DNA from: a virus
IMG/VR virus record: IMGVR_UViG_3300037423_001547
Direction: 5' to 3' (one strand)
DNA: 64,000 bases
Shown: in pieces, positions 4,833-44,793 of the stretch
Position numbering within the stretch: position 1 is the first letter of the stretch
Layout of the letters: each line of letters starts with the position of its first letter
Position numbers and translations under genes: made by a program
Notes under the pieces: generated by a model
Told to the model about the DNA's origin: nothing
The model's database searches: none
Seen by the model: the letters and a program-made list of their open reading frames with translations, nothing else

Positions 4833-5393
4833 GTGCGGTGGATGAGTCTCACAGGCAGTACGCGGACCACAACGACGGCAGGCATAGCGCTCCTGGCCGC
4901 CGGCCTGGCTCTCTGCACCAGCGGAGCCATCCGCGACAGCCTCCCCCACGCCCTCGGCGGAACGTGCCTCACCACTGTCGCGCTCACACTGATCGCACTG
5001 ACCCTCATCCGGCAATGGGTCAGTGACACGCGGCACGAGCGGAAAGACTTGGCTGCCGCACGCCACGACGCCGAGGCGCAGCAGCGTAAGTTCTTCGCTC
5101 TTCAGGCGGCTAACGAAGGTGAGATGGCCCGTTTCAAACGGGACATGAACATGGAGAAGGCCCGCATCGTCGAGACGCTCAGGGTTGAGCGGGAGGCGAT
5201 GCGGGCCCAGTTCGAAGAGGAACGCCTGCAAGTCAGCCAGAACGCGTTCCGGATGGGCGTTGAGATGGAGCGGTCCGGGGCGCTGAGGGCCGTGAAGCCG
5301 GTCCAGCTCGACAATCTCATCCCGTTCCCGGAGCAGGCCTCCCGAGCGTCGGAGCATCAGCGGTCTCGGGAGCACGGAGTGGTCGGTCCCTGA
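4833..5393 (+). CDS. membrane-anchored coiled-coil protein, co-oriented with the repressor
   Basis: Two N-terminal hydrophobic segments (AGIALLAAGLALC, LTTVALTLIALTLI) followed by a charged coiled coil. ATG 4842 is an alternative start. The 3' end overlaps the integrase 3' end convergently. Confidence 0.55.
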   Translation: MRWMSLTGSTRTTTTAGIALLAAGLALCTSGAIRDSLPHALGGTCLTTVALTLIALTLIRQWVSDTRHERKDLAAARHDAEAQQRKFFALQAANEGEMARFKRDMNMEKARIVETLRVEREAMRAQFEEERLQVSQNAFRMGVEMERSGALRAVKPVQLDNLIPFPEQASRASEHQRSREHGVVGP

Positions 5394-6957
5394 ACCCTGG
5401 CTCTCCTGCAAACGCCAGCGTGACACGGCCGTCTTCAATTGTCCGGACAGTCGAACTACGCGCCTTCCACAGCCGCACAGTCACCACCTGCCTTATGACT
5501 TCACGCTTCTGCTCCAGCGACAGCGCCCGCACCGCTGGCCGCCCCTCCTCTTCCGGCGCACCGTTCCACACCACGTCCGGGTCCGGCGCGTTGATGAGCG
5601 CCAGGAGCACGGGGTCCACACCAGTGATCTCGCGCAGCTTCTTCCGTTCGGCTTCCAGCCTCGGCACGAGCCTCTGCTCCAGCGAGGCCAGCGAGGCCGC
5701 AGAGAGCCTGAACCGCCCCGTCTCCTCGTCGTACTCCTCGGCGGTGCGTCGGGCCTCGGCGAGCTGCTCCTCGAAGGCGTTGATGCGGCGCTGTGCGGCC
5801 GCCATCTCGTCCTCGACAGCACCATCGTCGGGGATCAGAGCGGAGATGGCTTTGGACTTGTCGCGGAACCAGTTGACCACTGCTTCTTCGACGTAGGCAT
5901 CGAGCCAGCGTTCCCGGATCGACGTGTCCTTCTTCTCACCGCACTCCAACTTCGGGCCTCTCCCGGCATTGGGGTTCCCCCTCAGCAGCGCGTGGTCGCC
6001 GCAGGGGCCGCACAGGGCAATCAGCGACAGGAGGTGTACGGGCTCAGAGCCGCGCTGCGTGCGCCGAGTTGGGTCCGTCAGCTTGGCCGTGACCCGGTTG
6101 AACATGGCCCGGCCTTCTGGGGTTTCGAGTCCACGGATCGGGGGCCATGTCGCCTTCTTCCAGTCCCCTCCGTTCTTCCGCTCTCCCAAGTACGCGCGGT
6201 TGAGGAGCATCAGCCGGACGTTACGTGTGGTCCACGGGCGGCCGTCCGTGCGGGCCGCTTCCGGTTCGCCGTTCAGCCAGCGGATGAGGGAGGCGACGGA
6301 GTCCCCGCGATCGATGTGCACGAGCGACTGGTACACGAACGGGCCGGTCGTCTTGTTCTCATACTGGCGGACGCACCTGAGCTGTCCGTTGACGACCTCG
6401 TAGTCGCGGCTGTAGCCGAACAGGAGCCTGCCGTGCGGGTCGCCGGCCGCGGCCGTGCGCTGGGCGGTGCGCACGTTGCGGTCCCGGATGTCGTCTGCCT
6501 CCCCTTCCGCATTGATGGCGTCCATGGCGGTTGCCCTGCGGTCGTCGCTGCGGCTGAGGTCGTAGACGGTGCCCTTGTAGCAGAGGAGGACGCCGGCGTG
6601 GAGGCAGGCGGCGCGGAGCCTGACGTAGGCCTCAAGGTCGCGGTAGTACCTGCTGGCTTCGTAGGCGACGACGATGCGGGTGATGCCGGGGCGGGTGGGG
6701 GTGGTTTCGATGGCTTCGAGGAGGTCTTCGAAGTCGTCGCGTGCGCGGGTGGCGTGGCGGGATGCTGAGAGGCCGAGGTCTTTGAACTCTTCGACGATGC
6801 GCCAGCCGTAGTTGTGGCAGATTGCCCGTCCTGCGATGAGCTGGTCTTCGACGCTGTCTCCGCGTTTGTTGGGGTCGCGGGAGGCGCGTCCGTAGAGCAG
6901 TGCTTCGAACTCGGTGTTGGGGAGTACGAGGTGCAGGTATGACGGGTCGTAGGGCAT
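5317..6957 (-). CDS. int: large serine recombinase (phage integrase)
   Basis: N-terminal resolvase catalytic domain with YGRASRD (catalytic Ser context). Also a recombinase domain, a Cys cluster (CGPCG...C) and a C-terminal coiled coil. 546 aa, typical of phiC31/R4-type integrases. Confidence 0.92.
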   Translation of the reverse strand: MPYDPSYLHLVLPNTEFEALLYGRASRDPNKRGDSVEDQLIAGRAICHNYGWRIVEEFKDLGLSASRHATRARDDFEDLLEAIETTPTRPGITRIVVAYEASRYYRDLEAYVRLRAACLHAGVLLCYKGTVYDLSRSDDRRATAMDAINAEGEADDIRDRNVRTAQRTAAAGDPHGRLLFGYSRDYEVVNGQLRCVRQYENKTTGPFVYQSLVHIDRGDSVASLIRWLNGEPEAARTDGRPWTTRNVRLMLLNRAYLGERKNGGDWKKATWPPIRGLETPEGRAMFNRVTAKLTDPTRRTQRGSEPVHLLSLIALCGPCGDHALLRGNPNAGRGPKLECGEKKDTSIRERWLDAYVEEAVVNWFRDKSKAISALIPDDGAVEDEMAAAQRRINAFEEQLAEARRTAEEYDEETGRFRLSAASLASLEQRLVPRLEAERKKLREITGVDPVLLALINAPDPDVVWNGAPEEEGRPAVRALSLEQKREVIRQVVTVRLWKARSSTVRTIEDGRVTLAFAGEPGFRDRPLRAPETADAPTLGRPAPGTG

Positions 6958-9744: not shown

Positions 9745-10929
9745 TTACAGGCCGACCCAGGCCGCCATGTGGTTCAGCGTGTCCGGCGTCCGACGGGCCA
9801 CATGTACCAGCCCGCGGATCGTCTCCCGCGCGCCAGGGTGGTAGCGGGTCTGCTCCGGCGCCGCGTGACGGGCATCGACCAGCGACTGCAACGCCGCCTC
9901 CGTGTGCCCAGTCTCCATCTCCGTGCGGGCCCGGTCGATGAAGAAGTGGGCGCGGCGGCTGGTGGCGAGCGACGGCGGCAGCTTGATCCTGCGGGCCTGC
10001 GTCAGTGCGGCGTCGTAGTGACGCATCTCCACGGCCGCCGACATCCGGTGCAACATCACATTGGTCGGGCCGAACGACAGCCAGTGAACGTCGGAGGCGT
10101 CCCCGATCCGCTGCGCGATCTGCCGTGCCTCGGAGATGTGGCTGACGACGGTGCTCGTCTGCCGGGCCCGTGCTGCGATGACGGACGCCCCGAGGTGCAG
10201 CTGTCCCATGACCGCGTGCGCTTCGCGGGTGGGTTCGGCCTGCGCAACGGTTGTGTGCCCGGACGCGATGAGTCGCTGGCCGATGGTGTACTCGCCCTCC
10301 CGGAAGTAGACGAGGGCGCGCATGTACTGGCGGACCGCCCCCAAGCACGGGTCCGAAGCACGCTCGGCAGCCCACGCCATCCGGTCCAGGGCGACCGCCG
10401 ACAGATCGTAGTAGCCGAGCTTCACGCTGATGTCGTGGGCGGTCCGGTACGTCGAAGCCAGCGCCTGCCACAGCTCGGTCGACGGCATTGCCCAAGCAGT
10501 GTGCGTGAGTTCGGCGATCGCGCCGGGCAGTGCGCGGGCGGCGTTGCGGAGGTGGGTGGCGCGCACCTGCTCGCACAGCCGGTCCGCCTCCGTGATGAGG
10601 ACGTCGGCCGGCCGGGCGCGCAGGTCCGGGTTGGCGCCGAGGTCGTACAGGTCGAGGGCCTCGCGGATCGGGCGGACCAGTTCGGCGAGCCGGTCGCGTT
10701 GGAGTTCGGTCACGTAGGGCTGTCCCGTGAGGGTGGTGACGTCGACCTTCAGGGCGTGTGCTACGGCTGCGACGAAGTCGGCTGTGGCGGGGCGGGCGCC
10801 GCACTCCACTTGGTTGAGGAGGCTGTACGAGTAGGGGATGCGGTCGGCGAGTGAGCGTTGGGTGAGCCTGGCCAGTTTGCGTTGTTCGCGGATCCGCGCG
10901 CCGGTGTGGTCGTCGTCCAGTGTGGGCAT
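9745..10929 (-). CDS. XRE-family regulator with long helical-repeat (TPR-like) C-terminal domain
   Basis: N-terminus GARIREQRKLARLTQRSLADRIPYSYSLLNQVECGARP is an HTH_31-type motif. About 300 further residues form an Ala/Leu/Arg-rich helical domain, an architecture common in Streptomyces. Confidence 0.85.
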   Translation of the reverse strand: MPTLDDDHTGARIREQRKLARLTQRSLADRIPYSYSLLNQVECGARPATADFVAAVAHALKVDVTTLTGQPYVTELQRDRLAELVRPIREALDLYDLGANPDLRARPADVLITEADRLCEQVRATHLRNAARALPGAIAELTHTAWAMPSTELWQALASTYRTAHDISVKLGYYDLSAVALDRMAWAAERASDPCLGAVRQYMRALVYFREGEYTIGQRLIASGHTTVAQAEPTREAHAVMGQLHLGASVIAARARQTSTVVSHISEARQIAQRIGDASDVHWLSFGPTNVMLHRMSAAVEMRHYDAALTQARRIKLPPSLATSRRAHFFIDRARTEMETGHTEAALQSLVDARHAAPEQTRYHPGARETIRGLVHVARRTPDTLNHMAAWVGL

Positions 10930-11817: not shown

Positions 11818-12018
11818 TCACGGCTCCTCAGGCCACACAGACAGCTCCTCGCCGGTCTCCTCATCGACGAGGGCGACCCGGACGCCGGGCATGCTGCCGT
11901 ACTCGCCGACCCAGCCGATGAACTTCCGGCGGGCGACTTCCTCGCTACCCCACCAGCCGTGCTGCACTGGCCGGCCGTGCGTGGCGAGCAGGAGGTGGTA
12001 GCGGCCTGGGCTGGTCAT
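11818..12018 (-). CDS. hypothetical protein (66 aa), downstream partner of the LexA-DBD gene
   Basis: ATGA overlap with the upstream gene at 12015-12018. Trp/Gly-rich (HGWWGSEEVARRKFIGWVGEYG). Confidence 0.6.
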   Translation of the reverse strand: MTSPGRYHLLLATHGRPVQHGWWGSEEVARRKFIGWVGEYGSMPGVRVALVDEETGEELSVWPEEP

Positions 12019-12233
12019 GCGAGCCGGATCCCGCGGTAGCGGCCGGGCTCGCGGACGATCGCGCGCTTCGCTTCGAGTTCGACGAGCTGGTAGTGGACGG
12101 AGGCGCGGCTACGCAGGCCGACGGCGGCGCCGATCTCCCGGATGCTCGGTGCTTCGCCGTGGTCGGTGATGTGCTGGCGGATGGCGCGGAGGATGCGCTC
12201 CTGGGTGTCGGTGAGGTGGTCTACGCGGTGCAT
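12015..12233 (-). CDS. LexA N-terminal DNA-binding-domain-only protein (72 aa, no peptidase domain)
   Basis: LTDTQERILRAIRQHITDHGEAPSIREIGAAVGLRSRASVHYQLVELEAKRAIVREPGRYRGIRL matches the LexA winged-helix domain. The ORF stops where the hinge and S24 domain would begin. Confidence 0.75.
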   Translation of the reverse strand: MHRVDHLTDTQERILRAIRQHITDHGEAPSIREIGAAVGLRSRASVHYQLVELEAKRAIVREPGRYRGIRLA

Positions 12234-12600: not shown

Positions 12601-13665
12601 CTACCTCCGGATTATCAGGGTTCGCGGCTCGGCAGCCACGGCCAGGGTTCGGGATTCGGCGGCCACAGTCAGGCGCCGCCGCTCGGCGGGAATCATGAGG
12701 GTGCGCTCCGGGCTGGGCACGGTGGTGGACGGCACGGTGAGCGGGCGCGCCGTGTCGACCTCCAGTGCGGGCGTCAGAACCGCCGTCTTGACGCCTACGA
12801 GGGGTAGTGCCGTCTCCACGGATCCGGCGGCGGCCAGCGTCGCCGTGACAGTCGACGCGAGCGGCTGGGCGGCCTCGACGGATCCGGCTGCCCCGAGCGC
12901 ACCTGCCTTCACGCCGACGAGGGCCTGCGCGGTGTCCTGTTCGACAACCGGTACGAGAGTAGCGGTCTTGGTACCGACGAGCGCCTGCGCGCCGTCGGTC
13001 TCCGAGGCGATGCCGAGCGTGACTGTCTTGCTGGCGACCAGTTGCTGCGCTGCCTCGGTGGCGGATGCGACGCTGAGCGTTGTCGTCTTGCTGCCGGTCA
13101 GCGTCTGTGCGGTCTCGGTGGCGGACGCGATGCCGAGGGTCGCGCCGTTGACCACATCCGCGGCGGTGAAGTCATCGAAGCGAAGGGAGGACGTGGATTC
13201 AGCGCGGACGCCGACGCTGGTGCCGGTCGTGACAGCCGAGTCGGTGACGGAGATCCGCAGGGTCCCGTTGATGTACCCCTTGATCGCGGTCCCGACGACT
13301 TGAAGTTTCACGACGTCGCCCGCTACGGCGGCCGCGGCGTAACTGCCGATGCTGGTGAAGCTGCCGCCGACCACCGAGAAGAGGTTCCACGAGGTGCCGT
13401 CGTTACGGAGCAAGTAGCCCTGGGTGATGTTCGCGTTGCCTCTGGCCCATACGCCGTGGCTGACGGCTGCTGTGGCGGCGATGGTCATCTGGACTGAGTG
13501 GTCGGAAGTGGCCATCGCTCCGGCAGCGCGCAGGATGATCGTGCCGCCCGCCGAGCCGCTGCTGAGTTGGTTGGAGATGATCGACCAGTCGCCGGACACC
13601 TCAACCCACCCGGCCCCCAGGTCGGTGGAGTTGGCGCGGTTGAAGTCGTCGCTGAAGCTGGCCAC
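12601..13665 (-). CDS. lectin-fold-like protein with seven 20-aa tandem repeats (fibre or decoration candidate)
   Basis: The N-terminal ~170 aa look like a concanavalin/LamG-type beta sandwich (weak call). Residues 176-315 form 7 exact 20-residue repeats (TLGIASATETAQTLTGSKTT etc.). Confidence 0.7.
   Translation of the reverse strand: MASFSDDFNRANSTDLGAGWVEVSGDWSIISNQLSSGSAGGTIILRAAGAMATSDHSVQMTIAATAAVSHGVWARGNANITQGYLLRNDGTSWNLFSVVGGSFTSIGSYAAAAVAGDVVKLQVVGTAIKGYINGTLRISVTDSAVTTGTSVGVRAESTSSLRFDDFTAADVVNGATLGIASATETAQTLTGSKTTTLSVASATEAAQQLVASKTVTLGIASETDGAQALVGTKTATLVPVVEQDTAQALVGVKAGALGAAGSVEAAQPLASTVTATLAAAGSVETALPLVGVKTAVLTPALEVDTARPLTVPSTTVPSPERTLMIPAERRRLTVAAESRTLAVAAEPRTLIIRR
12721..13140 (-). 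repeat. 7 x 60-bp in-frame tandem repeat
   Basis: Period-20 peptide repeat with a conserved T-L-x5-(E/D)-x-A-Q-x-L-x-G-x-K-T pattern. Confidence 0.75.
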
Positions 13666-14150: not shown

Positions 14151-14780
14151 CTATACGTACTGCCTGCGCTGGGGGTCCAGCGCCAAGGCCTGCGGACTCT
14201 TACCGTCGTCGGGATCGCTGGGCTGCGGAGCGCCGTCCTTCCGGCACACCAGCGCATCCGGATCCCACGACGGCACCTGCGGCGAGTAGCCGGTCGGGCA
14301 TGCGGGGCCCGCAGGGCCTCGCTCTCCCTGCGGCCCTTGCTCTCCCCTGGGACCAGCCGGTCCGGGCTCGCCTTGCGGGCCCTGCTGCCCGGCCGGCCCG
14401 ACGGGACCCGTTGGGCCGGTCGAACCGGCGGGTCCCGTCGTACCGTCGGTCCCGTTCTTCCCGTTCTTGCCGGGGGAGCCAGAGGGGCCGGGTTCGCCCT
14501 GTGGTCCGGTCGGTCCTTCAGGACCCGGTGGACCAGTGACGGTCTTACCTGGTTCGCCGCGAGATCCGGGCGGTCCCGCGACGGGCTTCTCACCGAGCTG
14601 CTCCACCTGCCGGGCGAGCGCGTCACGGGCGGCATTGGCCGTGTGCAGTTCATTGGTGAGGCCCTGCACGCTCAGCACGATCCACGCAAGCGCAGCCCCG
14701 AGCATCAGCGCCGCTGTTATAGCCAGCACATCGCCGCGGCGCCACCGCCGCTCTTCCGCCCTGACTTGCACCCGGCTCAC
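14151..14780 (-). CDS. membrane-anchored collagen-like repeat protein
   Basis: GTG 14780 lies 2 nt after the upstream stop. There is a TM segment ([21 protein letters not shown]), then about 100 residues of uninterrupted G-X-Y triplets ([11 protein letters not shown]...GERGPAGP) and a C-terminal globular part. Confidence 0.75.
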
Positions 14781-14782
14781 GA

Positions 14783-15073
14783 TCAACGCCCCTGTGTCAG
14801 CAGGATGATGACGGGGAGAAGGATCCCGACGAGCGGCACGATCACCGCGCCGATCAGCCACCTGCGGGTGGCGACCAACTTCTCGGTGTCCTTCTCTCTC
14901 AGGGTCTCCAGCGTTGCGACCCGTGCGGCGAGTGCTTCGTGCCGCAGGTCGTAGATCCGCTGGTCGACTTTCTCGTCCATGCGGCGGCCGAGCTGCTGGA
15001 TGTCGTCGCGGACGTCGGCGAACCTCTCGTCGAAGCGTCTGACGACTTCACCCAGCGTCGGCTCGTCCGGCAC
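14783..15073 (-). CDS. lysis-cassette membrane protein (C-terminal TM anchor)
   Basis: 96 aa with a charged coiled-coil N-terminus and a C-terminal TM ([21 protein letters not shown]). Directly follows the holin. Confidence 0.65.
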
Positions 15074-15385: not shown

Positions 15386-16330
15386 TTACTGGGCGAGGCG
15401 CGCGGCGAGTTTGGCCGCGACCTTCTCTGCGATCTGTTCGGCGAGTGCCGGGTTCGCGGCGACCGCTGCGGCGAGCGCCGTGATCTGCGCGTCCGACACG
15501 ACCGGCGTCGTCAGCGTGTCGACCTTCTTCGCGAGCTCGCGCAGGCGGGTGTTGGTGTCCTTGAGGTAGGACTGGGGCTGCCAGGTCGTGTTGGTGGCCG
15601 CGTCCGGCGCATCCGGCGGGGCGGCGACCTGGTCGGTCTTCCAGACGGCGTCGTAGATGTCGGCCTTGGTGATTCCGGCCATGGGGTCCTCTTCCTGGGT
15701 GGGTCCTGCACGGAGGGTGGAGGCCACGTCGGAGCGGACCGCAGGCATGGCCATGATCTTGCCCGGGGCGTAGCCGGGGTCCCACTTGTCGTCGGACCAT
15801 TCGCCGTGCGCGATGACCGAGCGTTCCGTCCAGCCGTGGAAATCGAGGACCGCCGCCGACAACCGGCGGGCCGCCGCATACTGCGCCGCGCTCATCTCAT
15901 GCGATCCGCTGTACTGGATCTCGACGCCGTAGAAGTGGGCGTTGCCGTCCACCCCGTCGCTGTTGCCGCGCGTCGGGTGCAACTGGCCCGTGTAGTCCTC
16001 GTTGATGACGTGCTGCAGCACCGCCGGGTCGCCGCCGCCAGCGTGGTTCGCTCGGCCCCAGCCGATCAGGTAGACGGTGCCGTCGGCGCCGATGGAGAAG
16101 TGGCAGAGCGGGCCCGGCAGGTCGGAGAGTCCGTTGTAGAGGGTGCCTGCGGCGTAGGCCTTGGCGTCTTTCACGTCGGCGCCGGTGTGGTGCCAGATGA
16201 AGCCGTTGACCGGCCCCCACGCGCCCTTGCTGTTGCGGTTGTGGGTGGCCCAGCCGGAGATCTCGACGTACCGGAGACCCCACTTCTTCAGCTGGGTGAC
16301 GGCCTCCGTGGCCGTCATCGGGGTCGCCAT
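15386..16330 (-). CDS. endolysin, N-acetylmuramoyl-L-alanine amidase (PGRP/amidase_2 type)
   Basis: From ATG 16330 (GGAG upstream): GFIWHHTGADV...GRANHAGGGD...FYGVEIQYSG are amidase_2-like motifs, with an Ala-rich C-terminal domain. The track extension to 16429 has no RBS and covers a regulatory motif. Confidence 0.88.
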   Translation of the reverse strand: MATPMTATEAVTQLKKWGLRYVEISGWATHNRNSKGAWGPVNGFIWHHTGADVKDAKAYAAGTLYNGLSDLPGPLCHFSIGADGTVYLIGWGRANHAGGGDPAVLQHVINEDYTGQLHPTRGNSDGVDGNAHFYGVEIQYSGSHEMSAAQYAAARRLSAAVLDFHGWTERSVIAHGEWSDDKWDPGYAPGKIMAMPAVRSDVASTLRAGPTQEEDPMAGITKADIYDAVWKTDQVAAPPDAPDAATNTTWQPQSYLKDTNTRLRELAKKVDTLTTPVVSDAQITALAAAVAANPALAEQIAEKVAAKLAARLAQ

Positions 16331-16331
16331 C

Positions 16332-16382
16332 TCAGGCTCCGTTCGCGCTGGCGTGGCGGGCGAGTGACGATTCCGCGGGCAT
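16332..16382 (-). CDS. 16-codon upstream ORF coupled to the endolysin start
   Basis: ATG 16382 preceded by GGGAGG. Encodes MPAESSLARHASANGA. The TGA (16334-16332) sits 1 nt before the lysin ATG. Confidence 0.3.
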   Translation of the reverse strand: MPAESSLARHASANGA

Positions 16383-16405
16383 GCTGGCCTCCCACAGGCT
16401 AGGTT

Positions 16406-16419
16406 CCTTTGAATCGTAG
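16406..16419 (-). promoter_or_regulatory. late-operon leader motif, copy 1 (upstream of the lysis genes)
   Basis: The minus strand reads CTACGATTCAAAGG, 23 nt upstream of the uORF ATG. A second GAATCGCAG copy lies at 16443-16451. Confidence 0.5.
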
Positions 16420-16572
16420 CCTGTAGCACCCCATTGACCTATGAATCGCAGGCTATAGTTCGTTCATCCCTGGCTCAGGGGATGGCGGCGGGAGCGTGTC
16501 CGTGCGGGTCGCGCTCTCGCCGCGCCAGGCACCGGCACCCCCACCCGCACAAACCCGCACGCAGGAGCAGCC

Positions 16573-17310
16573 ATGCATGACCCGCTCACCGTCGCGTTCG
16601 AGATCCGCCGCCCCTGGCCGGAGCGCTCCACCCTCCCCGCCGCAGGCGACAAGGCCGCGCGCTGGCGCATCCGCCTCCACCACGACTGTGGCACCTGGTG
16701 CGCCGACGACCCACCTCACAAGGGCGGCGCGTTCCCCTGGTGGAAGCCCTCCAGCTACAGCGCGTTCTGGCGCCTCGCAGGCCGGGACTACTACTTCCCG
16801 CCCGTGATCACCGTGTGGCACCGGGAGCCTGGTGGGCGTGACGGCCTGACGGTGTGCAGCAGACGTGTCCAGCGTCGCGACGGTACGTGGCGGCGCACGC
16901 GCGGCTGGCGTTGGCACATTCACCATTACAAGATCCAGTTGCGGCCCTTCCAGAAGTGGCGCCGACGCCTGCTCACCCGCTGCGCCTGGTGCGGTGGCCG
17001 CTCCGTGAAGGGCGACCAAGTCAACGTCTCCCACTCCTGGAACGGCTCGCGATCCCGCTGGTGGCAGGGCGAACGTGGCTTGTTCCACCGGGACTGCTCC
17101 CCGATCGAACGGGCCCACGCCACCTGCGTGTGCACGCGGCCCGTGCTGGACCACGACACCTACGGGAGGTGCGCCAGCTGCGGCCGGTTCCGGCCCTTCG
17201 GCCTCACCGACGCCAACCTCGCCCGCGCCCGCGACCTCCAGACCATCCCGAAGGGCAGCCGCCGCGCCGACGCCGAGGAGAAGCCCGTGGCGGACGGGGA
17301 CGAGTCGTGA
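16573..17310 (+). CDS. Trp/Arg/Cys/His-rich protein of unknown function, first gene of the plus-strand cassette
   Basis: 245 aa containing VWHREPGGRD, WRWHIHHYKIQ, CAWCGG and CASCG, which looks like a metal-binding arrangement. I recognise no family. Confidence 0.65.
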   Translation: MHDPLTVAFEIRRPWPERSTLPAAGDKAARWRIRLHHDCGTWCADDPPHKGGAFPWWKPSSYSAFWRLAGRDYYFPPVITVWHREPGGRDGLTVCSRRVQRRDGTWRRTRGWRWHIHHYKIQLRPFQKWRRRLLTRCAWCGGRSVKGDQVNVSHSWNGSRSRWWQGERGLFHRDCSPIERAHATCVCTRPVLDHDTYGRCASCGRFRPFGLTDANLARARDLQTIPKGSRRADAEEKPVADGDES

Positions 17311-17410
17311 GCTACCTGTGCGCCGCGTTGGCGTTCCTGTTCGCGTTCGTCGTCCTCGCCCCACACGCCGAAGTCCACGTAGAGCCCGTACCTGCCGCGT
17401 GGAGCGGCCG

Positions 17411-17569
17411 ATGAACACCGCCGTCACCATCACCGCGATCATCGCCGCCGTCGCCCTGCTGAACAGCGGCATCACCGCCCTACGCGACATCGCCAAAGCG
17501 AAACACCAGACCGTCACTAAGCACTGCAAGACCTGCACCTGCGACAACAGCAAGGAGTCAGAGGCATGA
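17411..17569 (+). CDS. small membrane protein (52 aa)
   Basis: ATG 17411 preceded by GGAG. Has a TM segment (VTITAIIAAVALL) and a Cys-rich tail (CKTCTC). Its stop overlaps the epimerase ATG (ATGA). Confidence 0.5.
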   Translation: MNTAVTITAIIAAVALLNSGITALRDIAKAKHQTVTKHCKTCTCDNSKESEA

Positions 17570-19242
17570 AGGTTCTGATCACGGGTGGCAGCGGCTTCAT
17601 CGCCTCATGGTGCCGCCGGGAACTCCTCGCGCGAGGCCACAGCGTGCTGGTCATGGACCACCAGGACCGCCGCCAGCACCTCGCAGACGGCGAGGAGTTC
17701 TTCCTCGGCGACGTCCGTGACGCAACCGCCGTCACCGAAGCCGCCGCCCACGTCGACGGGATCATCCACCTCGCCGCCGTCCTCGGCACCCAGGAGACCA
17801 TCAGCAACCCGCGGCCCAGCGCCGAGACGAACATCCTCGGCAGCCTGAACGTCTTCGAGGCCGCCGTGCAGTACAACCTCCCTGCGGTCTATGCAGGGGT
17901 GGGGAACGCGTGGATGCGGGACCACGGAACCGGCTCCTACACGATCAGCAAGACGGCGGCCGAGGACTTCGTCCGCATGTTCAACGCCTACCGCAGCGGC
18001 CGTATCACGATCGTCCGCCCCGTCAACGCCTACGGGCCGGGGCAGAGCATCGCCGCCCCCTACGGCTGCGTCGATCCGAGCACACCCGTACTGTGCGCCG
18101 ACCTCGTCTGGAGGCCGATCTCCAGCCTGCGGGAAGGTGACGAGATCGTCGGCATCGACGAGTACGCGCCAGCGAAGAAGCAGCGAAAGCTGCGTCGGTC
18201 CACCGTGACGGGCTCGTGGGCAACGCGAAAGCATGCCGTCCGTCTCCACTTCGACGACGGCCGGTCGGTCACCTGCTCGCTCGATCACCCCTGGCTCGCA
18301 TCCTCACCGTCGGGGCAGATCCGCCAGTGGATCGAGGCGCGGAAGCTCCGCACAGGGGACCGCGTCGTGTGGGCCACGGATCAGACCTGGGACGCTGGGG
18401 ACAGCCGTTCCCACGGCTACGTCTCTGGACTCCTCGACGGCGAGGGGCATGTAGGCGGCCACGGCCCGGTATTCACGCAGAACCCCGGCCCCGTGCTGGA
18501 CGAGTACCTCTACCTCCTCAAAGAGTTCGGGTTCGAGCCCCAGACCCGGACGAAGGAGAACGGCCGGATCGTCGTGGACACGTCGGTCTCGGGACTGACT
18601 TCACGACTTCGGCTGCTGGGCGAGTTCCGCCCCGTCCGTCTCCTTGCGAGGGCCTCGCAGCTCTGGGAAGACAAGGCGCCGAACGGCGGCCGGGCGACCA
18701 TCACGGCCATCGAAGAGCTGGGCGAGACGGACCTGTGGGACGTCGAGACCACGTCGCACACCTACATCGCCAACGGGTTCGCGTCACACAACTCCAGCAA
18801 GGTCCGCAAGATCATGCCCGCCCTGACGTGCCGTGCGCTGACCGGTGCGGACATCGAGGTGTACGGCGACGGCACCCAGATCTCCGACTGCGTGTACGTC
18901 GGCGACGTGGCGCGGACGTTCGTGACCGCGTTTGAGCACACCGCCGCGCACGGGCCGACGGAGAAGCCGGTGGAGGTCGGGCCGCTCACGTCGGTCACCG
19001 TCAACGACATCGCCCGCCTGGTCGCTGAGGAGGCCGCGCGGGTGACGGGGCGGGAGCCGGTCGGGTTGAAGCATCTGCCGATGCGGCCGGGTGAGGTCCC
19101 GAACGCTGTCGTCTCCTCCGACACCAGCACGCTGCAGCAGATCGGGATGACGGCCGCGGACTTCGTGCCGCTCGACGAGGGCATCCACCACACGGTCCGC
19201 TACTACGCCGAGCAGTGGCTCCCCGGCTACCTGGCCGCCTGA
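17566..19242 (+). CDS. NAD-dependent sugar epimerase/dehydratase (extended SDR) interrupted by an intein
   Basis: Rossmann motif TGGSGFIAS and catalytic SYTISK (YxxxK). The exteins (167 + 149 aa) sum to 316 aa, the normal length for GalE/RmlB-like enzymes. Confidence 0.88.
   Translation: MKVLITGGSGFIASWCRRELLARGHSVLVMDHQDRRQHLADGEEFFLGDVRDATAVTEAAAHVDGIIHLAAVLGTQETISNPRPSAETNILGSLNVFEAAVQYNLPAVYAGVGNAWMRDHGTGSYTISKTAAEDFVRMFNAYRSGRITIVRPVNAYGPGQSIAAPYGCVDPSTPVLCADLVWRPISSLREGDEIVGIDEYAPAKKQRKLRRSTVTGSWATRKHAVRLHFDDGRSVTCSLDHPWLASSPSGQIRQWIEARKLRTGDRVVWATDQTWDAGDSRSHGYVSGLLDGEGHVGGHGPVFTQNPGPVLDEYLYLLKEFGFEPQTRTKENGRIVVDTSVSGLTSRLRLLGEFRPVRLLARASQLWEDKAPNGGRATITAIEELGETDLWDVETTSHTYIANGFASHNSSKVRKIMPALTCRALTGADIEVYGDGTQISDCVYVGDVARTFVTAFEHTAAHGPTEKPVEVGPLTSVTVNDIARLVAEEAARVTGREPVGLKHLPMRPGEVPNAVVSSDTSTLQQIGMTAADFVPLDEGIHHTVRYYAEQWLPGYLAA
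18067..18792 (+). mobile_element. intein (242 aa) with a LAGLIDADG-like motif
   Basis: Starts with Cys (CVDPSTPVLCADL). Block B is VTCSLDHPW, followed by GYVSGLLDGEGHV. It ends TSHTYIANGFASHN and is followed by Ser (+1). Confidence 0.85.
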
Positions 19243-19257
19243 ACGAAGGAGGCGGCC

Positions 19258-19860
19258 GTGGCCCGCTTGCAGATCCTGCAACTTCCCGAAGGCGCTGGCG
19301 ACGACCGGCCGCCGTTCGTCCTCGTCATCGACCAGCACCAGCCGCAGCGCTACGCACTCGGCATCGGCGAGGACGAGCCCGAGATGGTCGACGAGTTCGC
19401 CGGCGTCGCCGAGCAGATCGGGGCCCGTGTCGTGTTGGTGTTCCAAGAGACCGTCGAGATCCCTGCGAATGAGACCGCCGTGCACGCGCAACCCCTGATG
19501 CGCGTCGCGGACTTCGCGGGGCTCGACGAGATCAAGCGGCTGACCGAAGAGCGTGACGAAGCCCGCCTGTGGGCCCGACACGGCTACGAGATCGGGCAAC
19601 GCCACTGCGGCTGGTCCGACCACGGCGTCGCACCCGACTGGCTCACCGAAGGTTGGCCGCCCCACTTCGACGACTGCGAGCACTTCAAGCGTGCGGCGGA
19701 CTACGACGAGGCGCTCACCCGCGTCCGCAACCTGCCCGAGGAGCCCAAGTTCATGGATGCCCTGCACTCCGACTCCGCTGGCTACCGGCACGGCTACCGA
19801 GTGGCCATCGGCGATGCCAAGCGCGCCACCCGAGCCCGAGCCGCAGAGGACGGAGGCTGA
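19258..19860 (+). CDS. hypothetical protein (200 aa)
   Basis: Balanced composition, GGAGG upstream, embedded between the epimerase and the glycosyltransferase. Confidence 0.65.
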   Translation: MARLQILQLPEGAGDDRPPFVLVIDQHQPQRYALGIGEDEPEMVDEFAGVAEQIGARVVLVFQETVEIPANETAVHAQPLMRVADFAGLDEIKRLTEERDEARLWARHGYEIGQRHCGWSDHGVAPDWLTEGWPPHFDDCEHFKRAADYDEALTRVRNLPEEPKFMDALHSDSAGYRHGYRVAIGDAKRATRARAAEDGG

Positions 19861-19861
19861 C

Positions 19862-20875
19862 GTGCGCTGCCACTTCTGGTCCGCTGACCAGGCGGGTTCC
19901 AGTCTGTACAGGGCTACCCTGCCCGGGATGAGCTTGCAGTGGCTCGGTCACAATGTGTCCGGCGGCATGCGACTCCCCCAGGACTGGCCTGCCCTCGACG
20001 CGGTCGTTGGCTGCCGGGTGGCCAAGCGGGAGCCGTCCCTGATGTGGCACAAGCTGAAGGACGAGGGGAAGCGGCTCGTCCTCGACCTCGACGACGACTA
20101 CTTCCACATCGACCCCAGCAACGCCCACGCCCGCCAGGTCTGGGACACCGACATGCTCGGCAGGCTCGTCGCCAACATGCAGATCGCAGACCTCGTCACC
20201 TGCTGCTCCGAACCCCTCGCCGACGTCCTCCGCAACTACGCCGAAAACGTGCGAGTGATTCCGAACGGGCTGCCGGCGCAGTACCTGGGCACGCCCCGCG
20301 ACTACGAGGCCGCGGATCGTCCGCTGTTCGTGGGCTGGGCTGGCACGTCGTCCACGGTGGCGGAGTTGCCAGAGACTGTTCGCGCCCTCAACCGGATCGC
20401 CCAGTACCCGCGGCCCGGCGGCGGGGTGCAGGTCCGCATCGTTGGGATCAGCCCGGAGCACGCGATGGGCCTGGGGCTGCGCGGCCGGCGGGTCGGTGCG
20501 TTGGGTTGGGTGGAGCGGTTCGAGCACTACCTGCACGCGGTGTCCGAGTTCGACGTGTGGTGTGCGCCGTACAGGGACACGGCGTTCAACCGGGCGAAGT
20601 TCGCTACGAAGTGGCTGGAGGCCTCGGTGCTGGGGATCCCGCTGATCGCCTCCGATATCGAGCCGTACCGGCGGGTGATCCGGCATGGGGAGAACGGGTT
20701 CCTCGTGAAGTACGAGCACGAGTGGGGACGCTGGCTTAAGCGGCTCGCCGACGACCCGGAGCTGCGCCAGCGGATCGGGATGACGGCGCGGGGTGAGGCG
20801 TCGGGCAGCATCATGCAGGCGTTGCATCACCAGTGGGAGGCGGCCGTCCGCATGCCTGCGGAGGTGACCGCATGA
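19862..20875 (+). CDS. GT-B fold glycosyltransferase (GT1/GT4-like)
   Basis: GTG 19862 with GGACGGAGG upstream. The C-terminal KWLEASVLGIPLIASDIEPYRRVIRHGENGFLV matches the E-x7-E sugar-donor region of GT4-type enzymes. Confidence 0.78.
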   Translation: MRCHFWSADQAGSSLYRATLPGMSLQWLGHNVSGGMRLPQDWPALDAVVGCRVAKREPSLMWHKLKDEGKRLVLDLDDDYFHIDPSNAHARQVWDTDMLGRLVANMQIADLVTCCSEPLADVLRNYAENVRVIPNGLPAQYLGTPRDYEAADRPLFVGWAGTSSTVAELPETVRALNRIAQYPRPGGGVQVRIVGISPEHAMGLGLRGRRVGALGWVERFEHYLHAVSEFDVWCAPYRDTAFNRAKFATKWLEASVLGIPLIASDIEPYRRVIRHGENGFLVKYEHEWGRWLKRLADDPELRQRIGMTARGEASGSIMQALHHQWEAAVRMPAEVTA

Positions 20876-21117
20876 TCGCCCGCCTGACCTGGATCCCTGA
20901 CAACGGCGAGAGCGAGACCCTCACCGTAGACATCGCAGCACCCTGGCTCGAAGAGTTCCGCTCCTTGATCGGCACGCCCGAGTGGGCAAGCAGCGAAGCC
21001 GTCATGTGGATCCCCTGCCGTACCCGCGATGACCAGCCCATGACGAAGCGTCTGTTCCGGCTCGCACGCATCATCGCACTCGAACCCGTCCCAGCTGCGG
21101 AGAGGTCGACGCCTTGA
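20872..21117 (+). CDS. hypothetical protein (81 aa)
   Basis: ATGA overlap with the glycosyltransferase stop. Confidence 0.5.
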   Translation: MIARLTWIPDNGESETLTVDIAAPWLEEFRSLIGTPEWASSEAVMWIPCRTRDDQPMTKRLFRLARIIALEPVPAAERSTP

Positions 21118-21299
21118 CCGGGCCAGATCATTACCGCGAAGGCGAGCACCTCCTCGGCCGCTGCCTGGAATGGGGCCACGGCGAGCAACGCCAAGCCCTG
21201 GCCGTCGAAGCCGTCGCCCACTTTCTTGCCGCGCTCGTCGCCGCCACAGCCACCCACCAGCACCCCGAATCCGTCCGATGGCAGGAGGCCACCGAATGA
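21114..21299 (+). CDS. hypothetical protein (61 aa)
   Basis: TTG start overlapping the upstream stop. Its own stop overlaps the next ATG. Weak call. Confidence 0.4.
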   Translation: MTGPDHYREGEHLLGRCLEWGHGEQRQALAVEAVAHFLAALVAATATHQHPESVRWQEATE

Positions 21300-22165
21300 T
21301 CGACGGCAAAAGAGTCATTGCGTGGACCCCCTACGGCCGGGTCCGGACGTACAGCATCCTCTTCCAGTACCTGCGGCGGGACTTCGAGGATGGCCTCCTC
21401 GACGAGGTCTGGCTGTACATGAACACCGACCCGACCGGCCAGGAAGACGACATTGCCTACGCCCACCAGCTCGCCGAGGAGCACTCGACCTGGGTCAAGC
21501 TCAAGCACCGGCCCGAAGGCGTCCACCTCGGCCACCTGCCCAAGCAGAGGTACACCGGCCTGGCCTACCGGGAAATGATCGACCCGGACACGGTCTACCT
21601 GCGGCTCGACGATGATGTCGTCTACCTGCACGAGGACGCGATCGAGAACCTCGTGCGCGCCCGCATCGAGATGCCGGCGCCGACCGCCGTGTTCCCGATC
21701 ATCGTCAACAACGCGATCTGCTCCCACTTCCTCCAGGTCTGCGGGAAGGTCCCCATGGAGTGGGGTGAGGTCAAGCCGTACTGCATGGACCCGACCGGCT
21801 GGGCCAACGGGCCCTTCGCCGTCAAGCTGCACGAGATGCTCCTCGACCACATCGACGCCGGCACCGTCGACCAGCTCTACCTGTACCAGGACTTCCCGCT
21901 CCAGCCAGGCACGCAGTTCTCCGTGTCCTGCTTCGCGAGCCTCGGCAGCATGTACGCCGGCCTCCCGCACGGGCCCGGCATCCTCGTGCCGGATGAAGAG
22001 GAGAGCTGGCACACCATCCACCGGCCGCTCGCCACCGGCGCCCCGAACATCCTCCGCGGCGACGCGATCGTCAGCCACTGGTCGTTCTTCCCGCAGCATC
22101 CGTTCCTCAACAACACCACGCTCCTGGACCGGTACCGGGAGATCGCAGACAAGGCGGTGGCCTGA
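21296..22165 (+). CDS. putative GT-A-like glycosyltransferase (DxD-type motif)
   Basis: From ATG 21296 (ATGA overlap), 289 aa. VYLRLDDDVVYLHEDAI resembles a DxD nucleotide-sugar/metal site after an N-terminal beta-alpha region. The family is not identified. Confidence 0.55.
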   Translation: MIDGKRVIAWTPYGRVRTYSILFQYLRRDFEDGLLDEVWLYMNTDPTGQEDDIAYAHQLAEEHSTWVKLKHRPEGVHLGHLPKQRYTGLAYREMIDPDTVYLRLDDDVVYLHEDAIENLVRARIEMPAPTAVFPIIVNNAICSHFLQVCGKVPMEWGEVKPYCMDPTGWANGPFAVKLHEMLLDHIDAGTVDQLYLYQDFPLQPGTQFSVSCFASLGSMYAGLPHGPGILVPDEEESWHTIHRPLATGAPNILRGDAIVSHWSFFPQHPFLNNTTLLDRYREIADKAVA

Positions 22166-22371
22166 TGGCCCAGATCAGCGTCGAGGACGCCCTCGAAGAG
22201 TTCCGGAAGCAGTACGGCAAGGCCGTCGACGAAAACGTCCTCCTCCGCGCGCAGAACACGGCCTTGGAGCGGCGGGTGACGGAGCTGGAGCAGCAACTCG
22301 AAGGCCGCCCCGCACCCGCCGGCCCGGATCTGGCCGCGCAGCCCCCGTTCCTGGAGGGCGAGCAGGGTTAG
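22165..22371 (+). CDS. small coiled-coil protein (68 aa)
   Basis: Its start overlaps the upstream stop. Its 3' end overlaps the convergent tail-fibre stop by 4 nt. Confidence 0.5.
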   Translation: MAQISVEDALEEFRKQYGKAVDENVLLRAQNTALERRVTELEQQLEGRPAPAGPDLAAQPPFLEGEQG

Positions 22372-23435
22372 GCGATTCGGCGGATGTACATGTAGGAGCT
22401 GGTCAGCACCGATACGGCGGCCGCGTTCGACACGGACTGCGACCACTGGTAGGTGATGTTGCCTGCGCTGCCGACGGTGACGATGGACTCCTCGATGATG
22501 GCGATCGACAGGGTGTCGGCCTGGTAGATGGTGGTGGTTGTGTAGCCGTGGCCGGAGAATCGGCCTTGGGTCTGCTGACGTGAGGTGAATCCGGCGGTGA
22601 CGTCGCAGGGGCCGTGTACGAGTTTCAGGCCGGTGGTGCTGGCGGGTACGGCCCAGGCGGATTTGAAGTCGGTGTTGGCGGTGTCCGCGGTCGTCGCGAA
22701 GATCACGAAGCGGACGAGGTAGATGCCTCCGGAGACGACGCTTGCTGTCAGGTGGGGGTCGTCTGCGACGGTGGCGTTGTTGGTGCGGGCGGTGTCGGAC
22801 GGTTTGAGAACGTATCGTTCCTGCCCGATTCCGGTGGCGGAGAGGTTCCCGCCGACGGCGAGGTTCCCGGTGATGTTGGCGCTGCTTGCCACGCTGAGGT
22901 TGATGCCGACGTTGAGGCTGTCGTCGGTGGCCAGTGTGTTGGCGGCGGATCGGTAGAGGTTGACGTCGGGGGCGGTGGACCCGCCTGGCCCCCAGTTGTG
23001 GGTGCCGTCGGTGTCGATCTCGAATCGGTCCTGGGTGTCTCCGGTGACGCGGCTGGAGATCAGGTCGGTGGTGGTGGCGGCGTTGACGACGGCGAGGCTG
23101 GCGCTGCTGCCGCTGGAGTTGATGTTGATCTGTTTGCCGGACGCCAGCCGCAGCGTGGAGTTGAAGCTTGCGCTGCCGTTGGGGATTTCCACCCAGGAGC
23201 CGGACGCCGGGCTGGTGCCGTTGGAGAAGTAGGTCCGGTAGCTGGTGTCGGTCTCGAAGATGCCCTTGCCCGAGTACGGAGACGAGGGCCGCGTCGACGA
23301 CGTGCACGATGCGAAGCCGACTGCGGCGTCGACCTTGTCCCAGTTCTGGCCGATGTCCTGGCTGTAGTTGACCAGTTCGGAGCCGTCGCTCTTGCTCTTG
23401 TACAGGCCGAGGCGTGTGGTGGACGGGTCAGGCAT
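22368..23435 (-). CDS. tail fibre / receptor-binding protein
   Basis: AAAGGAGA RBS. The N-terminus MPDPSTTRLGLYKSKSDGSELVNYSQDIGQNWDKVD is typical of actinophage minor tail proteins. The rest is a Ser/Thr/Asn/Gly-rich beta-type sequence. Confidence 0.78.
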   Translation of the reverse strand: MPDPSTTRLGLYKSKSDGSELVNYSQDIGQNWDKVDAAVGFASCTSSTRPSSPYSGKGIFETDTSYRTYFSNGTSPASGSWVEIPNGSASFNSTLRLASGKQININSSGSSASLAVVNAATTTDLISSRVTGDTQDRFEIDTDGTHNWGPGGSTAPDVNLYRSAANTLATDDSLNVGINLSVASSANITGNLAVGGNLSATGIGQERYVLKPSDTARTNNATVADDPHLTASVVSGGIYLVRFVIFATTADTANTDFKSAWAVPASTTGLKLVHGPCDVTAGFTSRQQTQGRFSGHGYTTTTIYQADTLSIAIIEESIVTVGSAGNITYQWSQSVSNAAAVSVLTSSYMYIRRIA

Positions 23436-40806: not shown

Positions 40807-40821
40807 CCTTTGAATCGAAGG
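40807..40821 (-). promoter_or_regulatory. late-operon leader motif, copy 2 (upstream of portal)
   Basis: The minus strand reads CCTTCGATTCAAAGG, 22 nt upstream of GTG 40784. An inverted GAATCGAAG copy lies at 40746-40754. Confidence 0.5.
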
Positions 40822-43303: not shown

Positions 43304-43318
43304 CCTTTGAATCGTAGG
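43304..43318 (-). promoter_or_regulatory. late-operon leader motif, copy 3 (upstream of terS)
   Basis: The minus strand reads CCTACGATTCAAAGG, 24 nt upstream of ATG 43279. An inverted GAATCGAAG copy lies at 43336-43344. Confidence 0.5.
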
Positions 43319-44458: not shown

Positions 44459-44562
44459 GGTGGTCCCCCCTGGGTGTGCGGGTGTCGGGGGTGAGGGTAC
44501 GGCGGGTGTCGGGTGTGTGGGGGTTATGTGATGGTGCTGTGACCGGATCGGGTGGTGCGCGA

Positions 44563-44793
44563 TCAGGAGTAGTTCCGCGGCGGGAGTGGCTCGGCCTGCG
44601 ACTCGTCGATGATCCAAACGCAGCTGATGTAGTTCGGGTTGATCAGCACGTCCTGATCCCGGTCCGCCACATGCACCGCAATCGGTTTCCCGGAGTCGTG
44701 GTGTTGAGTGACAGTGCCTTCGATCGTGACACCGCTCGACAGGACAAACTCGTAGCGGCCGCCCTTCTTCACCTTGCGGTCCATCAAATCCAT
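44563..44793 (-). CDS. hypothetical protein (76 aa)
   Basis: ATG 44793 with an AGGAG RBS. Beta-rich small protein. Confidence 0.5.
   Translation of the reverse strand: MDLMDRKVKKGGRYEFVLSSGVTIEGTVTQHHDSGKPIAVHVADRDQDVLINPNYISCVWIIDESQAEPLPPRNYS

Follow-up and report, generated by a model that had tools for sequence, protein, structure and literature searches.

To our knowledge, phage-encoded protein glycosylation has been shown so far only for a few mycobacteriophages, and virion glycosylation by their glycosyltransferases (Che8 gp108-110, Corndog gp38 and Myrna) was reportedly described by Freeman in 2023. Seroconversion cassettes, such as GtrABC of P22/SfV-type phages and the prophage TarP of S. 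aureus, are another known system, in which sugar-modifying genes of a temperate phage stand beside a receptor-binding protein gene as a separate transcription unit. Here, a putative glycosylation cassette was analyzed computationally in the IMG/VR virus record IMGVR_UViG_3300037423_001547, whose whole stretch of 64,000 nt is called the window throughout. The cassette occupies positions 16573-22371 and consists of ten translationally coupled plus-strand open reading frames (ORFs, named g1 to g9 with g1b) lying between a tail-fibre gene and the lysis genes. Our favoured interpretation, to which a probability of about one half is given, is that it is a late-expressed, cytoplasmic module that attaches a short glycan to structural proteins of the phage before or during assembly.

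The cassette shares the arrangement just described with GtrABC and TarP. In contrast to them, its proteins have no Pfam match to a flippase, a bactoprenol glycosyltransferase or a polytopic glycosyltransferase, its promoter is of the late type, and one of its enzymes, g8, belongs to a GT-A family found only in viruses. Streptomyces phages KimJongPhill and Zuko carry genes for an SDR-family protein, a methyltransferase and a GT-B glycosyltransferase upstream of terS; as in the cassette, the GT-B is paired with an SDR-family sugar enzyme. Unlike the cassette, they have no GT-A of the g8 type, their SDR is of another subfamily (about 20% identical), their genes are co-oriented with the packaging genes, and the system is known from annotation only.

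According to three reports, mycobacteriophages glycosylate capsid and tail-tube proteins through glycosyltransferases of their own; virion glycosylation is established for actinobacteriophages (Che8, Corndog and Myrna), and it is the default reading in the field for such genes (PMC12363180, PMC11256854, PMC13313380). The cassette resembles the Che8-type systems in that these also consist of soluble, actinobacteriophage-encoded glycosyltransferases without export machinery, with virion-protein glycans as the proposed outcome; moreover, Che8 gp108 and a distant relative of g8 both have GT-A domains linked to TylF-type methyltransferases. Unlike the Che8-type systems, the cassette adds an SDR epimerase and a GT-B, lies inverted between fibre and lysis genes, has a structured leader and is known here from sequence alone.

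The Window and Its Relatives

The window is a temperate siphovirus-type genome or prophage of the Streptomyces kind, with 68% GC. Its predicted serine integrase and repressor-like regulator mark the phage as temperate; RecT and a DnaB-like helicase are also encoded, and the terS, terL, portal, capsid, tape-measure and tail genes lie on the minus strand. The 25-kb structural region had no megablast match among 50,697 phage records, and the best tblastn match of the 969-aa tail protein, in Streptomyces phages, covered 31% of its length at only about 31% identity. There is no close cultured phage from which annotation could be borrowed. Relatives are plentiful, in contrast, as prophages and as IMG/VR contigs of 65-85 kb. 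Two sets of them were compared with the window proteins by tblastn: 19 genome loci found via g8, and 79 IMG/VR loci found via the neighbouring tail gene and hence independent of the cassette (related loci bear L-numbers below). The class of the cassette could be read in 64 loci, and 31 class A loci with full coverage were used for the gene counts.

The Cassette Promoter Carries the Palindrome of the Late Promoters

The cassette and the endolysin side share a divergent control region of 242 bp (16331-16572), which had been noticed in the sequence-only reading and which over 40 loci of both cassette classes share at 68-88% nucleotide identity. A 15-bp palindrome, CCTWYGAWTCRWAGG, was found in four copies in the 64-kb window at one mismatch or fewer, against 0.03 expected. 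Two of these copies are the operators O1 and O2 of the divergent region, which class A and class B relatives also have at a spacing of exactly 32 bp. The start of the first lysis gene lies, in the relatives, 57-58 nt leftward of O2 and about 26 nt past O1. The remaining two precede terS and portal, the latter copy at the terL/portal junction (Table 1). The terS copy is placed identically in L191, L192, L193 and L196, and the portal-type copy recurs in L191. Each copy precedes by 20-30 nt the gene that opens a late unit, that is, lysis, cassette (via the leader), portal or terS, and no copy occurs in the early or immunity regions of the window.

Since four units (packaging/head, portal onward, lysis and cassette) have one cis element in one geometry, the cassette can be placed in the late regulon, and on this evidence it would be a separate transcription unit belonging to that regulon. 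The sequence-only reading had proposed a separate promoter region and expression independent of the late operon. The first part stands, as the cassette has a transcription unit of its own, but the independence from the late genes does not, given the palindrome in the terS/portal/lysis geometry. Nor is the 31-kb minus-strand block the single operon that had been supposed; it contains at least three internal copies of the promoter-associated palindrome.

All of these control elements were derived from comparative alignment; a scan of 14.5-24 kb for sigma-70 consensus promoters found nothing. An exact 17-mer of the repeat had no match in the related loci because the motif is degenerate, and the conservation became visible through BLASTN of the whole intergenic region.

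On the lysis side of the control region, a 16-codon ORF (16332-16382, minus strand; MPAESSLARHASANGA) begins exactly at the start of the C1-peptidase-type endolysin of relatives (e.g., MPARPSLGRKVEHDPRSL in L136). Its stop is separated by 2 nt from the start (ATG) of the window's endolysin, which does not resemble the peptidase-type gene of the relatives. The ORF looks like a vestige of an endolysin gene replacement.

A Structured Leader RNA Supported by Covariation

The stretch from O2 to the first start codon would be transcribed as a leader with two hairpins. Among 53 distinct sequences, 92.6% of the cells were paired, compared with 41-51% in slid controls, and the double-change cells amounted to 150-156 versus 12-45; none of 500 shuffles reached the observed values. 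Compensatory column pairs include CG:23/UA:22, AU:28/GC:24 and UA:21/CG:13. G-U pairs, which are A-C on the opposite strand, are frequent, which indicates that the plus strand is the folded molecule. The folding energy gave no signal (z = -0.45), being uninformative in a sequence so rich in GC, and the support for the structure is its covariation.

The invariant loop of hairpin 2, GUGCGGGU, is complementary to two to three downstream ACCCGCAC repeats, the last of which abuts the Shine-Dalgarno sequence (SD). Six sequences have UUGCGGGUU in the loop and AACCCGCAA in the repeat, a switch from G-C to U-A. The leader precedes whatever gene comes first, in class A and in class B. An exact-pattern scan detected it in 37 IMG/VR contigs, many of them already in the set of this lineage, and the covariance-model search of Rfam 15 over 16200-16700 gave no match at E≤1.

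HK022 put and EAR of Bacillus eps are cis-acting leaders that control long operons without internal terminators, and the EAR operon is glycan-related. The leader of the window is like them in having two conserved hairpins just downstream of a promoter that heads a long operon free of internal terminators. Unlike them, it has no Rfam match, and the pairing of loop and repeat beside the SD suggests translational control rather than processivity of the put/EAR type.

Organization of the Cassette

All ten plus-strand genes counted in the sequence-only reading were recovered, with a coding-type GC3 of 0.76-0.94; the gene that it had counted without listing is g1b (Table 1). The coupling by ATGA overlaps that it reported applies to four junctions, whereas the others are GTGA, TTGA, a 1-nt overlap, a 1-nt gap and a gap of 15 nt that holds a GAAGGAGG ribosome-binding site. 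Direct reading bore out the 4-nt overlap (TTAG) of g9 with the convergent fibre gene, and the terminator scan found no terminator-like site at the end of the cassette, again in keeping with that reading. Only g1b and g2 are clearly hydrophobic; g3, g5 and g8 have no predicted transmembrane segment.

Table 1. Positions of the features in the window, and occurrence of the cassette genes among the 31 class A loci.
Feature	Position	Strand	Description	Class A loci
Serine integrase	5317-6957			
Repressor-like regulator	9745-10929			
Collagen-like protein	14151-14861	-	236 aa; N-terminal transmembrane segment, coiled coil, about 35 Gly-X-Y repeats (Pfam Collagen)	
Endolysin	15386-16330	-	First long gene of the divergent lysis unit	
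Operator O1 (CCTTTGAATCGTAGC)	16406-16420		Palindromic; faces the lysis genes	
Operator O2 (CCTATGAATCGCAGG)	16438-16452		Palindromic; faces the cassette	
Putative -10-like hexamer TATAGT	16454-16459	+	Directly after O2; consensus of relatives TACAGT; deduced from sequence and alignments	
Leader RNA	16461-16572	+	About 110 nt, two hairpins; from after O2 to the first start codon	
Leader hairpin 1	16465-16484	+		
Leader hairpin 2	16485-16523	+	Loop GUGCGGGU at 16502-16509	
Leader ACCCGCAC repeats	16543-16550, 16553-16560	+	Degenerate copy at 16531-16538	
Leader SD AGGAG	16563-16567	+		
g1	16573-17310	+	245 aa, Trp/Cys/His-rich; accessory	4/31
g1b	17307-17414	+	35-aa hydrophobic peptide; GTGA overlap with g1	8/31 (tblastn)
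g2	17411-17569	+	52-aa peptide with a single transmembrane segment	7/31
g3	17566-19242	+	558 aa, extended-SDR nucleotide-sugar epimerase/dehydratase family; core	31/31
Intein inside g3	18067-18792	+	242 aa, class 1, LAGLIDADG homing-endonuclease domain	
g4	19258-19860	+	200-aa unknown protein; accessory	8/31
g5	19862-20875	+	GT4-like GT-B glycosyltransferase; core	31/31
g6	20872-21117	+	81-aa unknown protein; accessory	1/31
g7	21114-21299	+	61 aa, phrog_16141; accessory	11/31
g8	21296-22165	+	Predicted DxD GT-A-fold glycosyltransferase; core	31/31
g9	22165-22371	+	68-aa coiled-coil/Pro-rich protein; convergent on the fibre gene	21/31
Tail-fibre-like gene	22368-23435	-	Abuts the cassette; N-terminus conserved, C-terminus variable	
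Palindrome copy	40807-40821		terL/portal junction, 22 nt before a GTG with GGGAGG SD	
Palindrome copy	43304-43318		Late packaging/head promoter; 26 nt before the terS start, followed by TACAGG and SD	

Enzymes of the Cassette

The assignments of an epimerase, a GT-B and a GT-A, made before from the letters of the sequence, held in profile and structure tests. The g3 product matched PF01370 (Epimerase) with 121.3 bits against a cut-off of 20.9, as well as phrog_540, and the best PDB match of its spliced extein was the UDP-glucose 4-epimerase 4zrm (E 6e-25 over residues 1-306, the whole length). The Rossmann GxxGxxG motif is present as GGSGFIAS at residues 7-14, and YxxxK is kept as YTISK, aligned to the Tyr and Lys of 4zrm. 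The catalytic Ser/Thr of the triad is absent: both in g3 and in the intein-less allele of L007, AGV stands opposite SST of 4zrm. Since this residue is replaced and no NCBIfam equivalog scored above its cut-off, "epimerase" is a family-level call, and the activity and specificity of g3 are uncertain. The SDR clade to which g3 belongs is characterized by Ala-Gly-Val at extein residues of about 109-113 and by a deletion of about 13 residues before YxxxK; its chemistry may differ from that of a plain 4-epimerase.

The intein that had been recognized in this NAD-dependent epimerase was borne out by its class-1 residues and by the restored extein. It spans amino acids 168-409 of g3 (C1...HN/S+1), running from CVDPST to FASHN with Ser as the next residue, and its removal leaves a contiguous extein of 316 aa, 83% identical to the allele of L007, in which the intein is lacking. 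The profile scores were 24.8 bits for LAGLIDADG_3 (cut-off 22.5), 20.6 for Intein_splicing (cut-off 35.8) and 20.2 for intein_Nterm (cut-off 24.5). Only two of the 31 relatives, L034 and L064, carry it. LAGLIDADG inteins were also seen in a g8-family homologue (P0278, 605 aa) and in the tape-measure gene of the related prophage L006 (16734-20867), so that inteins seem common in the gene pool of these phages.

The GT-B assignment of g5 is supported by PF13692 (Glyco_trans_1_4; 44.5 against a cut-off of 27), PF00534 (Glycos_transf_1; 38.9 against 26.4) and phrog_7162 (E 4e-41). The E-x7-E region that had been reported along with it fared less well: such strings exist in g5, but outside the canonical GT4 site, where the second Glu is present (WLEASVLGIP) and the residue eight positions upstream is Ala. 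Over 92% of its length, g5 is 33-34% identical to the GT-B proteins of KimJongPhill (gp6, 34%) and Zuko.

No Pfam or NCBIfam match was obtained for g8, and only a marginal one to phrog_4447 (E 0.004). Its AlphaFold 2 model, built with 41 homologues, had a pLDDT of 85.9 and a pTM of 0.89, and Foldseek recovered a GT-A fold, as had been suspected: 137 PDB matches at E≤1e-3, with a single Rossmann-like alpha/beta/alpha GT-A domain. LH3 (by its glycosyltransferase domain), ppGalNAc-T1/T2 and ColGalT1 led the PDB matches (E about 2e-7, TM-score about 0.5). Among the viral models of BFVD, the best match was a Pithovirus protein in which a GT-A domain is fused to a TylF-type methyltransferase (TM-score 0.77). 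The motif D105-D106-D107 (DxD) is invariant in 41 close and nine distant homologues. A profile search placed the family at 1380 representative clusters at 50% identity; its long members are fusions with GT2, GT4 and methyltransferase domains, one of them bearing an intein of its own. Wherever the context of the family could be seen, it was viral (all 19 of the genome loci, 80 loci of IMG/VR and metagenome-assembled genomes of giant viruses). By its model and motif, g8 is predicted to be a DxD GT-A-fold glycosyltransferase of an undescribed, virus-associated family.

Core Genes, Accessory Genes and an Exchangeable Slot

Among the informative loci, 38 of 64 have a cassette with the epimerase, GT-B and g8 (class A), 14 have a different cassette in the identical slot (class B), and 12, all with a tail protein at most 57% identical, have none. 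The class B cassettes encode a distant GT-B (31-37%), a P4H-type 2OG-Fe(II) oxygenase (PF13640), an S-adenosylmethionine (SAM) methyltransferase, a GT2 and DUF6221. Examples of class B are L038 (14298-22046) and L046 (14505-20291), with the same operators and leader as in class A. The two classes are interleaved over the full range of tail-protein identity, which implies that cassettes swap between close relatives.

Within class A, g3, g5 and g8 are constant and always convergent on the fibre gene, as is also the case in the 19 genome loci, and a second SDR paralogue occurs in 15 of the 31 loci. The fibre-like gene itself is 30-83% identical across loci (tblastn), often in its N-terminal part only. 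Since g1-g2, g4, g6, g7 and g9 vary, the cassette is best described as a three-enzyme core inside mosaic accessory genes. The epimerase, two glycosyltransferases and four unknown proteins had been taken as one module, which does not hold, as the unknowns vary in presence and position and only three of the ten genes are conserved.

The accessory genes also lead elsewhere. For g1, sequence searches of Pfam, PHROG, NCBIfam and PDB gave no match, its AlphaFold 2 model was poor (pLDDT 62.9) and the Foldseek matches were meaningless, so that a remote-homology and structure check recovered neither function nor fold. It has more than 700 actinobacterial homologues; those whose context was examined lie in early-type phage regions beside RusA, ECF sigma, Lsr2-/WhiB-like and DUF6221 genes, with no sugar enzymes. 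For g4, the searches yielded a similarity of the N-terminal 78 aa, which are 55% identical to gp31 of phage VWB, and nothing beyond it. Homologues of g1 and g4 elsewhere stand in phage regions without glycosylation genes. The position of g4 is variable among class A loci, that of g6 is taken by a DUF6221 gene in L006, and g9 is also present in class B loci.

The oxygenase of class B bears on a rival explanation, in which the cassette would act during the lytic cycle on another target, namely the membrane-anchored collagen-like protein of the lysis unit or another non-virion phage protein, or else host envelope precursors, aiding lysis or blocking re-adsorption to debris. The collagen-like gene comes directly after two holin-like genes, overlaps the upstream ORF and is kept in the lysis unit of many relatives, and the late-type promoter of the cassette is shared with this unit and divergent from it. 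Two collagen glycosyltransferases, LH3 and ColGalT1, are among the top fold matches of g8, and a P4H-type oxygenase together with glycosyltransferases recalls the hydroxylation and subsequent glycosylation of collagen-like proteins. However, these fold matches are generic for GT-A (TM-score about 0.5), the class A cassette has no hydroxylase, collagen-like matches are also found in the distant cassette-less relatives L071, L076 and L080, and in other lineages the location in head operons indicates virion proteins. Such a target is therefore considered improbable.

Setting of the Core Trio in Other Phages

Elsewhere, the trio lies within morphogenesis operons and is co-directional with them, all on one strand. 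In L023 and L107 the order is portal, MuF, protease, then GT-B, u312, epimerase, g8 and u307, followed by the major capsid protein (MCP). In L109 the trio is found downstream of MCP, in L113 directly before TerL and portal, and in L154 upstream of a protease/MCP-like gene; in KimJongPhill, an SDR, a methyltransferase and the g5 homologue directly precede terS. Taken together, the late-type promoter, the morphogenesis contexts elsewhere, a g8 family seen only in viral contexts and a cassette without export or membrane machinery favour a cytoplasmic, virus-specific, late acceptor. Additionally, the best solved-structure matches of g8 are protein O-glycosyltransferases, which is weak evidence in the same direction.

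Inverted placement beside large neighbour genes also occurs outside the lineage of the window. The epimerase has about 75% nucleotide identity to a gene of Streptomyces phages of about 186-200 kb, where, as in genes 157-158 of phage Satis (L187, 4887-6688), it makes up an inverted two-gene islet together with an unrelated protein of 283 aa. The islet adjoins the genes of a protein of 2111 aa and of another with a weak match to collagen repeats. Gene 158 was considered as a g8 homologue and rejected (hhalign probability 0.3).

The gene contexts speak against a further rival explanation, lysogenic conversion, in which the prophage would express the cassette and glycosylate a cell-wall glycopolymer or the precursor of a surface glycoprotein on the cytoplasmic face, altering the receptor and excluding related phages. 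Several features agree with it: the phage is temperate, with its integrase and repressor-like regulator; the cassette runs opposite to the late genes from its own promoter, beside the receptor-binding fibre gene; alternative cassettes in one slot resemble serotype-like diversification; and the small membrane peptides g1b and g2 are present. Prophage TarP modifies wall teichoic acid, and enzymes of the TarM/TarS/TarP type are likewise soluble GT-B or GT-A proteins. On the other hand, the cassette promoter has the late-gene palindrome, no GtrA/GtrB/GtrC-like or other polytopic proteins are encoded in the cassette, homologues of g8 were never seen in cellular cell-wall loci, and the trio occurs in head/packaging operons of other phages. 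Moreover, hosts of 41-47% GC must have different envelopes, and their phages carry an epimerase-g8 pair that is 44-53% identical. All 19 genome copies adjoin tail genes with long tblastn matches, so that nothing points to domestication. The analogy with seroconversion offered earlier is thus weakened by the missing flippase, bactoprenol and polytopic glycosyltransferases, by the viral g8 family and by the head/packaging contexts, and lysogenic conversion is disfavoured as unlikely.

Additional observations concern neighbouring genes. A virion-structural/tail-like protein (phrog_2804, phrog_4978) is encoded at 12601-13665 on the minus strand, after the lysis genes. Tandem repeats of about 17 aa, rich in Ser, Thr and Ala (…TLGIASATETAQTL…), make up its C-terminal half, and the protein could conceivably be a glycosylation substrate. 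A 72-aa ORF located where the late region ends (12015-12233, minus strand) reads, by inspection of the sequence only, like the N-terminal winged-helix DNA-binding domain of LexA (…SIREIGAAVGLRSRASVHYQLVELEAKRAI…) and is a candidate regulator. Just upstream of the terS promoter region, on the minus strand (43832-44617), a phage protein of 261 aa with two C-terminal PASTA domains (PF03793) is encoded.

Discussion

Virion glycosylation was one of two functions first offered for this cassette, and the late-type promoter and the morphogenesis contexts now favour it at roughly even odds, with the acceptor inferred. The sequence of events would be as follows. The cassette would be transcribed from its own promoter, which bears the 15-bp palindrome of the terS, portal and lysis promoters and would thereby join the late regulon. 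The mRNA would begin with the covariation-supported leader of about 110 nt, in which the loop of hairpin 2 can pair with the ACCCGCAC repeats that abut the SD; the leader may tune translation of the first gene, or may keep transcription processive over 5.8 kb head-on into the fibre gene. The g3 protein would first splice out the intein seen in its sequence and, judging from its family, would then turn a host UDP- or NDP-sugar into an epimer or derivative. As their folds and motifs suggest, g5 (a soluble GT-B) and g8 (a DxD GT-A) would transfer sugars one after the other onto a cytoplasmic acceptor. From the gene context, this acceptor would be a virion protein, for which the adjacent fibre and other Ser/Thr-rich tail proteins are obvious candidates. 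Beyond fold, motif, synteny and covariation, all functional statements made here are inference.

Several points weigh against this interpretation. The cassette is replaceable or missing in relatives and hence is not essential for particle formation. The glycan target is read from context only, and the capsid and tail-tube proteins of the window show no obvious Ser/Thr-rich C-terminal extensions. Inversion relative to the late genes, found in every member of the lineage, would not be expected under simple co-expression. The palindrome may be where a repressor binds, and not an activator site or part of a promoter, and O2 may belong to the lysis promoter alone. The SDR protein g3 lacks the canonical catalytic Ser/Thr. 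In BLASTP comparisons of g5 and g8 with Che8 gp108-110 there was no match below E = 1, and a link to the Che8 enzymes was rejected for want of sequence similarity.

The last of these points comes from the low-GC phages L116, L128 and L110, in which an epimerase (49-53% identical to that of the window) and g8 (44-46%) form a pair among genes of replication and nucleotide metabolism. This setting recalls a different function, the glycosylation of phage DNA (hypermodified bases) against restriction. In L116, the pair and GT25-/GT32-like genes are found among genes for a DNA polymerase, a UvsX-like recombinase, a dNMP kinase and a 5'-nucleotidase; a TET-associated glycosyltransferase ranks 47th among the distant fold matches of g8; and homologues of g1 adjoin RusA in Arthrobacter phages. 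Nevertheless, the 20 larger non-cassette ORFs of the window that were scanned contain no TET/JBP or dNMP hydroxymethylase, only an N6/N4 methylase, the operator implies late timing, and neither the giant-virus nor the head-operon contexts agree with this function. In Che8, the genes of virion glycosylation likewise lie among non-structural genes, so that a replication-region context such as that of L116 is not diagnostic. Glycosylation of DNA is thus regarded as very improbable.

Virion glycosylation remains the preferred reading, and a broader and more tentative version of it, to which we give a low probability, may be put forward. The slot between fibre and lysis genes might be a swappable "glycan-coat" locus, in which class A and class B cassettes vary the surface chemistry of virions that are otherwise alike, all of them switched late through one palindrome and all gated by the new leader RNA, acting either in put/EAR-like processive antitermination or as a translational switch.

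Glycosylation cassettes of phages are known; what is new here is an enzyme trio with an undescribed GT-A, a fixed, inverted slot in which cassettes alternate, a late regulon defined by a palindrome, and a leader RNA. If the favoured interpretation is true, glycosylation extends to a large uncultured lineage of temperate phages of Streptomyces and other actinomycetes, and an unrelated set of enzymes is added to those known, including a GT-A family of about 1400 clusters in phages and giant viruses that has no Pfam model or studied member. The four-site palindrome defining the late regulon of the lineage, and the covariation-supported leader RNA absent from Rfam, provide handles on its regulation. 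Moreover, the use of one slot by two unrelated cassettes in alternation suggests that virion or surface chemistry is under selection, which bears on phage host range and on the engineering of Streptomyces phages.

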